Below are positions 7,306-24,424 of a stretch of DNA of 64,000 nt, one piece after another. The first letter of the stretch is position 1, and every line of letters starts with the position of its first letter. The DNA lies in NCBI GenBank assembly GCA_035906055.1, contig JAMIFV010000021.1, forward strand, positions 1,810-65,809, read 5' to 3'. This DNA comes from Alphaproteobacteria bacterium. Lineage in GTDB: Bacteria; Pseudomonadota; Alphaproteobacteria; Rickettsiales; JABCZZ01. The notes under the pieces are model-generated. The model was not told where the DNA came from. It saw only the letters and a program-made list of their open reading frames with translations, and did no database searches. Made by a program: the position numbers and the translations under genes.

Positions 7306-7683
7306 ATGGTTAAGCATTATAGAGAACTGAAGATTTGGCAAAGATCCATGGAATTGACGAAATCAATATATGAGGCTACCGCGCAATTTCCTAAAACGGA
7401 AATATATGGCCTTGCCGTTCAGATGCGTCGTTCATCTGTCTCGGTGCCGTCTAATATCGCCGAAGGGCATAATCGAGATTCTTCAAAAGAGTTTCTGCGT
7501 TTTCCTTCCATTGCCCAAGGCTCGCTTGCCGAGTTGGAAACACAGATCACTCTCTCGCAAGCGTTCGCCTACATTCCTGAAAAGCAGGCTTATGATTTAC
7601 TGCAATGTGCCGATGAAGTTGGAAAAATGATTCGCGGCCTGCAATCCAGAATTAACGAAAACCTACTAGCCCCTAGCAACTAG
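7306..7683 (+). CDS. Four-helix-bundle protein (23S rRNA intervening-sequence protein / TIGR02436-like; Avd-like fold)
   Basis: YRELKIWQRSM..IY..T..FPK.E.YGL..QMRRSSVSVPSNIAEG..R.S.KEF....IA.GSL.ELETQ signature; lower GC than flanks. Confidence 0.93.
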   Translation: MVKHYRELKIWQRSMELTKSIYEATAQFPKTEIYGLAVQMRRSSVSVPSNIAEGHNRDSSKEFLRFPSIAQGSLAELETQITLSQAFAYIPEKQAYDLLQCADEVGKMIRGLQSRINENLLAPSN

Positions 7684-7695
7684 CTCCTAGCAACT
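7663..7695 (+). repeat. Right heptamer-period arm (CTAG flavour), inverted relative to 7270-7300
   Basis: CTAG at 7666, 7673, 7680, 7687 and CTAT at 7694; ctagccccta complements taggggctag; contains the four-helix gene stop and abuts the atpG ATG. Confidence 0.85.
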
Positions 7696-8568
7696 ATGCC
7701 AAGTTTAAAAGATTTAAAGAACAGGATTAAGAGCGTCAAATCGACGCAGAAGATCACGAAGGCCATGAAGATGGTGGCCGCCGCGAAGCTGCGCCGCGCC
7801 AAGGACCGTGCAGAATCCGCACGCCCCTATGCGGAAAAGATGGCCGCTATCCTTTCCTCCCTCGCCGCAGGCCAGAGCCAGAACGCCATTCCGCTGCTAA
7901 ACGGCACGGGTAAATCCGACACCGTGCTGCTGGTGGTGATGACCTCCGACCGTGGCCTGTGCGGCGCGTTCAACGGCTCCATCACGCGTGCCACCAAACG
8001 CAAGGTGGCCGAGCTGAGAGCCGCGGGCAAGACCGTGAAGCTCTTGTGCATAGGCAAAAAAGCCTATGACCTGCTCAAGAACGATTTCGGCAGCCTGATC
8101 ATCGGCCGCATGAGCGAGATCGGCAAGAAGCAGGTGCAATACGCGGAAGCCGAACATATCGCACGCGCCGTGCTCAAGCATTTCAACGATGGCGGCATCG
8201 ACATGGTGCATATCGTTTACAACCATTTCAAGTCGGCCATATCGCAGGTGGTTACGTTCCAGCAGGTGATTCCGTTGCTAGAACTAAACAACGAACAACG
8301 AGCAACGAACAACGTTCCCTATGAATTCGAGCCGGATGAAGAATCCATCCTCGCCGACCTGCTGCCGCGTAACGTGGCCGTGCAGATCTATGGCGGGCTT
8401 CTGGAAAATGCCGCATCCGAACAGGGCGCGCGCATGACCGCGATGGACAACGCCACCCGCAACGCAGGCGGCATGATCGGCAAGCTCACCCTCAAATACA
8501 ACCGTACCCGTCAGGCGACGATTACGAAAGAACTCATTGAGATTATCTCGGGAGCGGAAGCATTATAA
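7696..8568 (+). CDS. atpG: F1 ATP synthase gamma subunit
   Basis: [50 protein letters not shown]. Confidence 0.99.
8286..8314 (+). repeat. In-frame heptamer array inside atpG (CAAC flavour)
   Basis: aaacaac-gaacaac-gagcaac-gaacaac-g, encoding NNEQRATNN. Confidence 0.85.
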
Positions 8569-10816: not shown

Positions 10817-19210
<8,394 letters not shown>

Positions 19211-23512: not shown

Positions 23513-23627
23513 TTCGTTGTTCGTTGTTCGTTGTTCATTGTTCGCGCGCACCGGAAGGTGGCATATCCATATAAAGTACTATTTATACAAAATAATTCTA
23601 ACAACGAAGAACTAACAACCAACAACG
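23513..23627 (-). repeat. Heptamer-period inverted repeat at the thiD 3' end (GTTG/CAAC flavour)
   Basis: ttcgttg x3 + ttcattg + ttcg (23513-23544) versus aacaacg-aagaact-aacaacc-aacaacg (23600-23627); the latter includes the last thiD codons and stop. Confidence 0.88.
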
Positions 23628-24424
23628 TGATGATTGAGGGGCCCGTGCCCTTTTCCCAGCCCCGGCGCGGTGCGTATGGCTTCATGCACATATGCCCTTG
23701 CCCGCTCCACCGCCTTTTTCAGTTCCAGCCCCTGCGCCAGGCCGGTCGCGATAGCGGAAGCGAGCGTGCAGCCCGTGCCGTGCGTATGCAAGGTATGGAT
23801 GCGGGGGGAAGAGAACGTGATAAGTGGCACGTGGCACGTGGCAAGAACATCTGTGACGATATCGCCCCGTAAATGCCCCCCCTTGAGCAATACAGACTTA
23901 GCACCTAAAGTGAGCAGAGACTGCGCTAACATTTCCATTTCCTTACCACTTGCCACGTGCCACCTGCCACCACTTAGGAGTTCCGCTTCCGGTATGTTAG
24001 GGGTAAGAACCGCCGCCTTCGGGATCAGCCGCGTTTTCAGGGCTTCCAGAGCCTCCTGCTGAAGCAGTGGTGCGCCGCCCTTGGCTACCATCACGGGGTC
24101 AAGCACAAGCGGAATGGCCGGGTAATCATCCAATACTTTTGCCACCGTGTTGATGACCCCGGCACTATGCAGCATGCCGGTCTTGATGCAGTCCGCGCCG
24201 ATATCCTCCAGCACCAGCCGCATCTGCTGCTCTAAAAAAGCCGTGGGCACCTCATGGATGCCAAAAACCCCGTGGCTGTTCTGGGCGGTGAGTGCCGTTA
24301 CAGCCGTGGCGGCATAGCCCCCAAGCATGGTTATAGTCTTGATATCCCCCTGAATTCCGGCTCCTCCGCCCGAATCCGACCCGGCAACGACCAATACCCT
24401 GCCCGCCAATTTTTTCTCGTTCAT
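23612..24424 (-). CDS. thiD: Hydroxymethylpyrimidine/phosphomethylpyrimidine kinase ThiD
   Basis: AGSDSGGGAGIQGD, DPVMVAKGG, TPNIPEAE, KGGH, HTHGTGCTLASA; ATG 24424 has aaggaa SD. Confidence 0.96.
   Translation of the reverse strand: MNEKKLAGRVLVVAGSDSGGGAGIQGDIKTITMLGGYAATAVTALTAQNSHGVFGIHEVPTAFLEQQMRLVLEDIGADCIKTGMLHSAGVINTVAKVLDDYPAIPLVLDPVMVAKGGAPLLQQEALEALKTRLIPKAAVLTPNIPEAELLSGGRWHVASGKEMEMLAQSLLTLGAKSVLLKGGHLRGDIVTDVLATCHVPLITFSSPRIHTLHTHGTGCTLASAIATGLAQGLELKKAVERARAYVHEAIRTAPGLGKGHGPLNHHVVGC
23817..23970 (-). repeat. In-frame inverted heptamer arms inside thiD (GTGGCA/TGCCAC flavour)
   Basis: gtgataa-gtggcac-gtggcac-gtggcaa (23817-23844) and ttaccac-ttgccac-gtgccac-ctgccac (23943-23970). 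Confidence 0.9.

Follow-up and report, generated by a model that had tools for sequence, protein, structure and literature searches.

Results

We found that thiD of an alphaproteobacterium of the order Rickettsiales (contig JAMIFV010000021.1 of assembly GCA_035906055.1) carries two complementary arrays of about four heptamers each, both in frame in the coding sequence. The gene encodes hydroxymethylpyrimidine/phosphomethylpyrimidine (HMP-P) kinase. It was analyzed within a 64,000-nucleotide (nt) stretch of the contig, called the window below, and positions are those of the window unless a contig is named. The source genome (G000) is of activated-sludge origin, has 2.36 Mb in 81 contigs with 55% GC, and is rated 100% complete. 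The two arrays are built like the hairpin stems of 23S rRNA intervening sequences (IVSs) and short tandemly repeated repetitive (STRR) sequences. With slightly better than even confidence, we favor the reading that IVS/STRR-type hairpin arms were installed in thiD by a length-conserving, templated replacement of native codons.

Two complementary heptamer arrays lie in frame in thiD

The repeat unit in thiD is GTGGCAN in one arm and NTGCCAC in the other (Table 1). When the arms were paired with each other over 29 positions, 24 Watson–Crick pairs, 3 G–U pairs and 2 mismatches were obtained. The repeat finder reported a 22-nt core with 95% complementarity (I3) and 34-nt arms with 79% complementarity (I1). 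On the plus strand, the letters are GTGATAA GTGGCAC GTGGCAC GTGGCAA G at 23817-23845, and CTTACCA CTTGCCA CGTGCCA CCTGCCAC at 23943-23970. The 97 nt between the arms encode native ThiD sequence, including the KGGH motif, and align to all orthologues without a gap. These data agreed with an earlier reading of this DNA made from the sequence alone (the sequence-only reading), which had described in-frame heptamer arms able to form a helix of about 28 bp around a loop encoding KGGH.

The ThiD protein is intact. In a comparison with solved HMP-P kinases, it matched PDB 7r8y with an E value of 5.5e-79, and a 64-sequence alignment indicated that all invariant ThiD residues and motifs were kept. Its AlphaFold2 model had a mean pLDDT of 91.5. 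In the model, the 5′ arm corresponds to a coil (residues 151-159) between helices 144-150 and 160-173. The 3′ arm corresponds to the tip of a β-hairpin (197-201) and the adjoining ends of strands 189-196 and 202-207. Both arms are thus predicted to fall in surface loops of a confident model.

Two trivial origins were rejected. RWHVAS and ATCHVP, the peptides encoded by the arms, were not conserved motifs in the ThiD orthologue alignments, which ruled out a conserved protein motif. Logan contigs from three activated-sludge runs (depths 22, 16 and 3.3) were identical to the thiD region letter for letter, which ruled out an assembly artefact.

A contig of run X2 joined window position 23845 to 23947 in a compact hairpin, (GTGGCAC)n-TAAATTTTAC-(GTGCCAC)n, at a depth of 3.5. 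This hairpin probably came from another locus or organism; it is possibly a donor-type copy of the thiD unit.

The arms mostly replace native codons

Two spacings were scored in 120 homologues, from PNxPE to KGGH and from KGGH to HGTGC, with the residues of HGTGC counted. They were 37 and 38 residues in about 90 of the 120 homologues, and 39 and 39 residues in the source genome. The net gain with the 5′ arm was +2 amino acids (aa), that with the 3′ arm +1 aa; the PDB alignment gave the same values. The arms themselves are 28-29 nt long and cover more than nine codons. The nearest array-less relatives, P0005 and P0007, are 80% and 78% identical to the source ThiD. Site 1 has 27 nt in the source genome versus 21 nt in both relatives, and site 2 has 24 nt versus 21 nt in P0005. 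These alignments supported that the arms mostly replaced native loop codons rather than adding to them. The sequence-only reading had proposed just such a replacement of tolerant loop codons, without length gain. The replacement was supported by the orthologue alignments; the gain is small against the 28-29-nt arms, but it is not zero.

Similar values were obtained for other in-frame arrays of the genome. The net changes were 0 to +2 aa in carA, 0 to +1 aa in carB, +2 aa in atpG, about 0 in priA and +6 in thiC, where the outcome was near-neutral only in part. Because none of them equaled the array length or a multiple of 7 nt, pure array insertion was excluded. Insertion of a one-piece hairpin or a miniature inverted-repeat transposable element (MITE) was also excluded, because the sequence between the thiD arms is native, collinear and essential. 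On this point the sequence-only reading, which had argued against a simple MITE footprint, was right.

Among relatives, the net gain at the same two thiD sites ranged from +3 to +18 aa. Site 1 tolerated +15 aa in P0008, indicating that the gain in the source genome is not kept small by selection on loop length.

The same two loops carry different complementary units in relatives

Relatives with 73-80% ThiD identity were obtained from a search of 5.8 billion proteins, and DNA was obtained for twelve of them. At least seven different 7- or 8-nt units were found among the relatives at the same two thiD loops (Table 1). Since indels shift the arms of different lineages out of register, pairing was judged from the duplex of each genome. 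In every carrier, the 3′ arm was the complement of its own 5′ arm, with duplexes of −30 to −74 kcal/mol versus about −25 kcal/mol for shuffled sequences. For example, the source genome has GGTGGCA/TGCCACC where P0004 has GGTGGTC/GACCACC. For the arms to be coupled in this way, one must be copied from the other or pairing must be under strong selection. The difference between P0003 and P0008 is exactly three octamers (24 nt), and the frame is kept. Close relatives thus carry different complementary units, or none, at the same loops, as the comparison proposed in the sequence-only reading was meant to reveal.

A thiD tree was built without the two sites; it was too sparse and too poorly resolved to separate an ancient hairpin with unit turnover from repeated births. 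In this tree, the source genome grouped with P0003 and P0008 (support 93), and the three lay inside a 95%-supported clade that also includes P0005 and P0007, both without arrays, and excludes P0004 and P0006, which carry GGTGG-type units.

A local seed or microhomology could plausibly have given rise to the unit in two genes: in thiD, GGTGGCA is faced by GGTGGT in P0007, and in carA, GCTCAGA is shared. At carB, no local seed was evident.

A third thiD site was seen in another family of the order. The thiD gene of G013 (L030, G013:C58) has a compact in-frame hairpin, with five copies of GTTCAGG and two of CCTGAAC, after DPVMVATSG. Near this position the frame of G003 thiD is broken, and the G007 sequence is masked (N).

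The predicted thiD helix is strong but not ancestral

A 181-nt sense RNA of the thiD region folded at −73.4 kcal/mol, versus −56.1 ± 4.2 kcal/mol in 200 shuffles (z −4.1), and none of the 200 folded as well. The antisense RNA folded at −55.7 kcal/mol (z −3.2). The duplex between the two sites was −52 kcal/mol in the source genome, versus −25.5 ± 3.9 kcal/mol when shuffled. In array-less orthologues it was −8 to −15 kcal/mol, which is the shuffle level; P0005, P0007 and 14 other orthologues never rose above their shuffles. An ancestral thiD mRNA helix was ruled out by these orthologues, and judged from the sequences compared, the helix is a derived feature.

The sense and antisense duplex energies gave no consistent G–U advantage for the sense strand among carriers. 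The antisense duplex was the stronger one in P0003, P0008, G004 and P0022. An Rfam-type family search of the thiD region returned only a chance miRNA match (E 0.25), which lay on the neighboring heptamer pair.

The thiD arms belong to a genome-wide family

In the source genome, 140 arrays of period 7 were found, versus 11 of period 8, none of period 10 and 1 of period 11. The period-7 arrays have a median of 3.9 units (27 nt) and fall into a handful of unit families. Inverted pairing gave 37 candidate pairs, with spacers of 1 to about 640 nt. The G/T-rich arm was the 5′ arm in 33 of the 37, and of the remaining four, two were doubtful as pairs, one was a tie and one a weak reversal. The two strands of an inverted repeat read alike, so this polarity belongs to the DNA itself and does not depend on the orientation of genes.

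Besides thiD, in-frame pairs or compact hairpins were found in four genes and solo in-frame arrays in six (Table 1), and heptamer pairs also occupy intergenic spacers. The case of carA parallels that of thiD. At the same two carA sites, the source genome has an AGAGTTC pair and G006, of another genus, has an AGTTGCC-type pair (L136). The span from AQN to DYG is 72 residues in the source genome and 71 in G006, versus 70-71 in array-less family members.

Several further arrays were noted. The carA gene of G013 (L144) has a compact AGTTGC/CAACTG hairpin of +14 aa at the second carA site. In the cluster at G000:C40:27096-29727, the internal AGAGTTC pair of carA is followed, 600 nt downstream in the carA–carB spacer, by a PF05635 cassette with AGAGTTC arms. 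The solo array of carB in this cluster, (GTGGCAA)x4, has the thiD unit. The cluster suggests local spread of a unit. In the window, the tandem-repeat scan indicated that the rpoB–rpoC spacer (15035-15100) is filled by a 4+4 heptamer hairpin (AGAGTTC/GAACTCC) whose loop has about 9 nt. The second heptamer pair at thiD, GTTGTTC/GAACAAC, overlaps the 3′ end of the gene, and its mRNA 5′ arm forms the last codons (VVGC) and the TAG stop at 23612-23614.

Table 1. Positions and units of the heptamer arrays, their host genes and the PF05635 genes. Positions refer to the window unless a contig (C) of G000 is given; arm sequences are in mRNA sense.
Feature	Position	Strand	Description
thiD	23612..24424	minus	HMP-P kinase, 270 aa, intact; open reading frame (ORF) translated, PF08543 precomputed family
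thiD 5′ arm	23943..23971	minus	G GTGGCAG GTGGCAC GTGGCAA GTGGTAA; encodes GGRWHVASGK, G152-K161
thiD spacer	23846..23942	minus	97 nt native sequence; encodes EMEMLAQSLLTLGAKSVLLKGGHLRGDIVTDV
thiD 3′ arm	23817..23845	minus	CTTGCCA CGTGCCA CGTGCCA CTTATCA C; encodes LATCHVPLIT, L194-T203
GTTGTTC/GAACAAC pair	23513..23627	minus	28-nt arms, 86% complementary (I2); 57-nt AT-rich spacer
PF05635 gene	7321..7635 (G000:C21:9130-9444)	plus	23S rRNA IVS protein, Avd-like; 132 bits; just upstream of atpG
PF05635 gene	C40:27904-28221		between carA and carB
PF05635 gene	C36:12175-12489
PF05635 gene	C79:21305-21622
atpG solo array	8285..8317	plus	AACAACG x4, in frame; net +2 aa vs Paracoccus gamma subunit
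carA			in-frame pair around 39 native residues
priA			in-frame pair around winged-helix domain
pyruvate dehydrogenase E2 linker			in-frame pair
recJ			compact in-frame hairpin
carB, atpG, thiC, leuS, ygfZ, uvrD			solo in-frame arrays
thiD loops, G000			unit GGTGGCA
thiD loops, P0004			unit GGTGGTC
thiD loops, P0006			degenerate unit GGCAGGT
thiD loops, P0009			unit CGAGGNN; net gain +3 aa
thiD loops, P0016, P0013, P0022			unit TGCAAGT / CAGGTTN
thiD loops, P0003			octamer CGGGTTAT, 6 units in 5′ arm
thiD loops, P0008			octamer CGGGTTAT, 9 units in 5′ arm; net gain +18 aa
thiD loops, G004			octamer CCGGGAAG
thiD loops, P0005			no array; baseline length at both sites; usual K-I motif at site 1
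thiD loops, P0007			no array; baseline length and K-I motif at site 1; site 2 +2 aa

PF05635 genes are bracketed by heptamer arrays

The window contains a PF05635 gene upstream of atpG (Table 1). It is flanked on both sides by inverted ACTAGCN arrays (one at 7665-7696), and the flank duplex was −58.9 kcal/mol. Inverted heptamer arrays enclosed all four PF05635 genes of the source genome, and the unit differed from gene to gene. In nine other genomes of the order, eight more PF05635 loci were accessible to examination, and all of them had the same arrangement and the same polarity (12/12 loci, 10 genomes): the G/T-rich arm is 5′ and the A/C-rich arm 3′, on either strand. The four cassette units of the source genome are also the four commonest units of its cargo-less pairs. 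For the thiD unit GTGGCAN, no cognate PF05635 cassette was found in this genome.

Arrays and PF05635 genes were compared in 40-kb samples of 20 relatives; for AT-rich genomes, the noise floor of the 3-unit array detector was 0-4 per 40 kb. The array-rich genomes G000, G004, G013 and G035 all had PF05635. G024 had seven PF05635 genes and no arrays in the 40 kb sampled, and G033 had three PF05635 genes and no convincing array. With several PF05635-positive genomes lacking arrays in their samples, the association across relatives is only suggestive.

Other candidate enzymes were searched for in the source genome. It encodes RNase III (rnc). Reverse transcriptase (PF00078) was absent from this genome, which is rated complete. 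Two full-length IS200/IS605 Y1 transposase genes were found, at C62:4006-4365 and C69:5911-6267. Fragments of them lie at many contig ends, indicating that a multicopy insertion sequence breaks the assembly. The Y1 transposase genes had no flanking heptamer arrays.

Comparison with known systems

To our knowledge, the origin of heptamer-repeat stems has never been explained, although they have been known since the 1990s from 23S IVSs, cyanobacterial STRRs and Xanthomonas simple sequence repeats (SSRs). The cyanobacterial STRR heptamer repeats were reportedly described by Mazel et al. in 1990. Rickettsia palindromic elements (RPEs) are 100-150 bp long, have a family consensus, are inserted in one piece and add 30-50 aa. 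The repeats of the source genome are palindromic as well, and they are tolerated in frame at surface positions of housekeeping genes. Unlike RPEs, the thiD arms are split by native sequence, add a net +3 aa and use units that differ by locus and have only their periodicity in common.

The IVS stem of Coxiella is 28 bp long and is cleaved by RNase III in its middle; its strands consist of direct heptameric repeats that vary in number (PMC4990558). The thiD stem, with about 28 bp of direct heptamers, has the build of the 23S IVSs that carry an S23p/PF05635 ORF in Coxiella burnetii, Leptospira and other bacteria. It differs in two respects. The thiD pair lies in the coding region of an mRNA and not in a helix of 23S rRNA, its arms being translated in place of native codons. 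Between the arms stand 97 nt of essential thiD sequence instead of a PF05635 ORF.

The heptameric SSRs GGGAATC (Xanthomonas) and GGGGAYT (Nostoc) are dispersed through the genome with a strong preference for four units, and Xanthomonas has 70-75 "convergent" inverted pairs per genome (PMC4692102). The same preference for about four units and the same frequent convergent pairs were found in the source genome. The published SSRs have one G-tract unit per genome, are mostly intergenic (7-11% intragenic) and were read as G-quadruplexes (PMC4692102). In contrast, GTGGCAN has no GGG tract, the source genome has many units, thiD and many other copies are in frame in genes, and the arms lie up to 400 nt apart around native sequence.

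Template switching makes and maintains hairpins and homogenizes inverted-repeat arms, including in coding DNA (PMC8794818, PMC8604942). In such quasipalindrome mutation, one arm of an inverted repeat serves as the template from which the other is rewritten at conserved length, so that a single step yields a perfect stem along with changes that look compensatory. In thiD, the replacements of 21 by 27 nt and of 21 by 24 nt and the co-variation of the arms would be consistent with this; with the best relative at 80% identity, no single event was visible. Unlike the arrays of the source genome, template-switch mutation is generic, without 7-nt periodicity, four-unit geometry, fixed polarity or an associated gene.

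Diversity-generating retroelements (DGRs), which work with Avd and a reverse transcriptase, also overwrite a coding segment from a template without length change, and their accessory protein Avd resembles PF05635 (PMC10053308). Unlike a DGR, the source genome has no reverse transcriptase, no pair of template and variable repeats (TR/VR) and no adenine-specific mutagenesis. DGR-like retrohoming was ruled out by the missing reverse transcriptase.

Discussion

In the explanation that we favor, the thiD arms would be a copy of the hairpin repeat of this genome, whose roughly 28-bp stem has about four tandem 7-nt units per strand, with the G/T-rich strand 5′. Each arm would have been written over about seven native codons of a tolerant surface loop by a roughly length-conserving deletion-plus-insertion, and not as one piece. 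The second arm would have been templated on the first, or kept complementary to it. The one documented process that works in this way is switching of the replication template between the two sites. After installation, the arms would be inherited, would expand or contract in frame-preserving steps and would be homogenized in unit within and between arms; sometimes the unit would be replaced, and arms may decay. The helix is probably tolerated, as both arms lie in loops and the ribosome would unwind it, and in untranslated mRNA it would be a substrate of RNase III. Most likely the thiD helix has no thiD-specific function, and the arms are probably neutral or selfish passengers. Templated overwriting had been offered by the sequence-only reading as one of two explanations. 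It agrees with the frame arithmetic and with the way in which the arms co-vary, and it is the best reading available, but neither a template nor an enzyme was found for it.

Several points weigh against this explanation. We infer a one-step replacement from arithmetic, with the closest relative at 80% identity. Template switching alone leaves the 7-nt unit, the arms of about four units, the G/T-5′ polarity and the two-arm unit replacement unexplained. That arrays recur at the same two loops could reflect targeting of these sites, or a function, instead of a selection filter. The recJ hairpin is mostly a net insertion (+19 of 25 aa). P0010 and P0011 have loops longer by +2/+3 aa, without periodicity or pairing, and part of the neutral length could come from older, decayed arrays. 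Finally, the organism was absent from the RNA runs screened, in which shares of 0.05-0.09 reflected conserved rpoB/C words of other organisms.

Some of these points favor ordinary insertion, by unit slippage or by a hairpin element, followed by later deletion of loop codons, with pairing kept by selection or by chance homogenization. We regard this as unlikely, though it is the alternative that survives best. It accounts for recJ, for the extended array-free loops of P0010 and P0011, for the continuum of net gains of +3 to +18 aa among relatives at the same sites, and for the 24-nt in-frame difference between P0003 and P0008, which has the form of a slippage-type expansion. Its difficulty is the frame. 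An array of 28 nt shifts it, so insertion into this essential single-copy gene would require a simultaneous deletion of 22, 25 or 28 nt, and the gene could not survive an insertion with a separate, later frame-restoring deletion. The near-neutral outcome recurs in at least six genes. The tolerance of site 1 for +15 aa leaves little pressure to delete, and the origin of a complementary arm about 100 nt away is left unexplained.

A functional thiD mRNA helix of 28-30 bp seems quite improbable. It could be an RNase III- or translation-coupled control, processing or stability element shaped by compensatory evolution, and the sequence-only reading had named selection for such a helix as its other explanation. 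Strong pairing is kept in lineages with differing units, and in the source genome the sense RNA folds better than the antisense (−73.4 versus −55.7 kcal/mol). RNase III, which the genome encodes, does cut IVS stems built in this way (PMC4990558). Selection for the helix was nevertheless not supported. P0005 and P0007, close relatives without arrays, manage without the helix, as does the rest of the order, the sense-strand advantage was inconsistent among carriers, and the region matched no Rfam family. Identical structures occur in carA, priA, the pyruvate dehydrogenase E2 linker and intergenic spacers, the thiD pair being one of dozens, and solo arms without a partner occur in carB, atpG, thiC and leuS. 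The strand-symmetric G/T-5′ polarity also points to a process at the DNA level.

Still more doubtful is a dedicated array-writing system, in which a trans-acting factor, with the Avd-like PF05635 protein as the candidate, installs or renews complementary 4×7-nt arrays at two points of DNA or RNA as a DGR analogue that lacks reverse transcriptase. All PF05635 genes examined are bracketed by arrays, the protein resembles Avd, the four cassette units match the four commonest cargo-less units, all the sampled array-rich genomes carry PF05635, and polarity is strict and geometry fixed. On the other side, the source genome has no reverse transcriptase and no cassette cognate to the thiD unit, G024 and G033 have PF05635 genes without convincing arrays, and the cassette could be merely one cargo of the hairpin.

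A miniature element driven by a transposase, of the REPIN/RAYT type (hairpins of repetitive extragenic palindromic (REP) sequences with their transposase) or another, is very improbable: the genome does encode IS200/IS605 Y1 transposases, and REPINs are described as hairpin-forming doublets (PMC3116915), but the Y1 genes lack flanking arrays, the units are many and unrelated without a conserved REP consensus, and cut-and-paste insertion cannot produce arms that stand on either side of native coding sequence and take the place of codons.

Length-conserving templated replacement therefore remains the explanation that we favor for the thiD arms. A dedicated mechanism is conceivable in view of the features that it does not explain, among them the constant presence of PF05635. 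There is a small chance that, in bacteria of this order, a dedicated process overwrites existing sequence with two complementary arrays of about 4×7 nt, the G/T-rich arm 5′, without changing its length, and periodically renews the unit in both arms together. The Avd-like PF05635 protein would be its specificity or chaperone factor. If so, such a process would act on points up to about 400 nt apart, and the arms in thiD, carA and priA would be footprints of a DGR-like overwriting of housekeeping genes without reverse transcriptase.

IVS heptamer stems and convergent heptamer SSRs have been published (PMC4990558, PMC4692102); translated, codon-replacing arms around essential sequence and unit turnover at fixed loops are not covered by that work. 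Arrays in conserved genes offer a natural experiment, as the ancestral sequence and length are known from orthologues. The in-gene copies indicate that the arms replace native sequence, that they can be placed around essential sequence already present, and that the same loops carry different but always complementary units in related lineages. Repeats of this common bacterial hairpin class are therefore probably written over gene sequence and not inserted into it. These features rule out simple insertion models and make the origin of this repeat class testable. They also matter for annotation, since the odd loop peptides and long stems in housekeeping genes could pass for regulatory RNAs or assembly errors.

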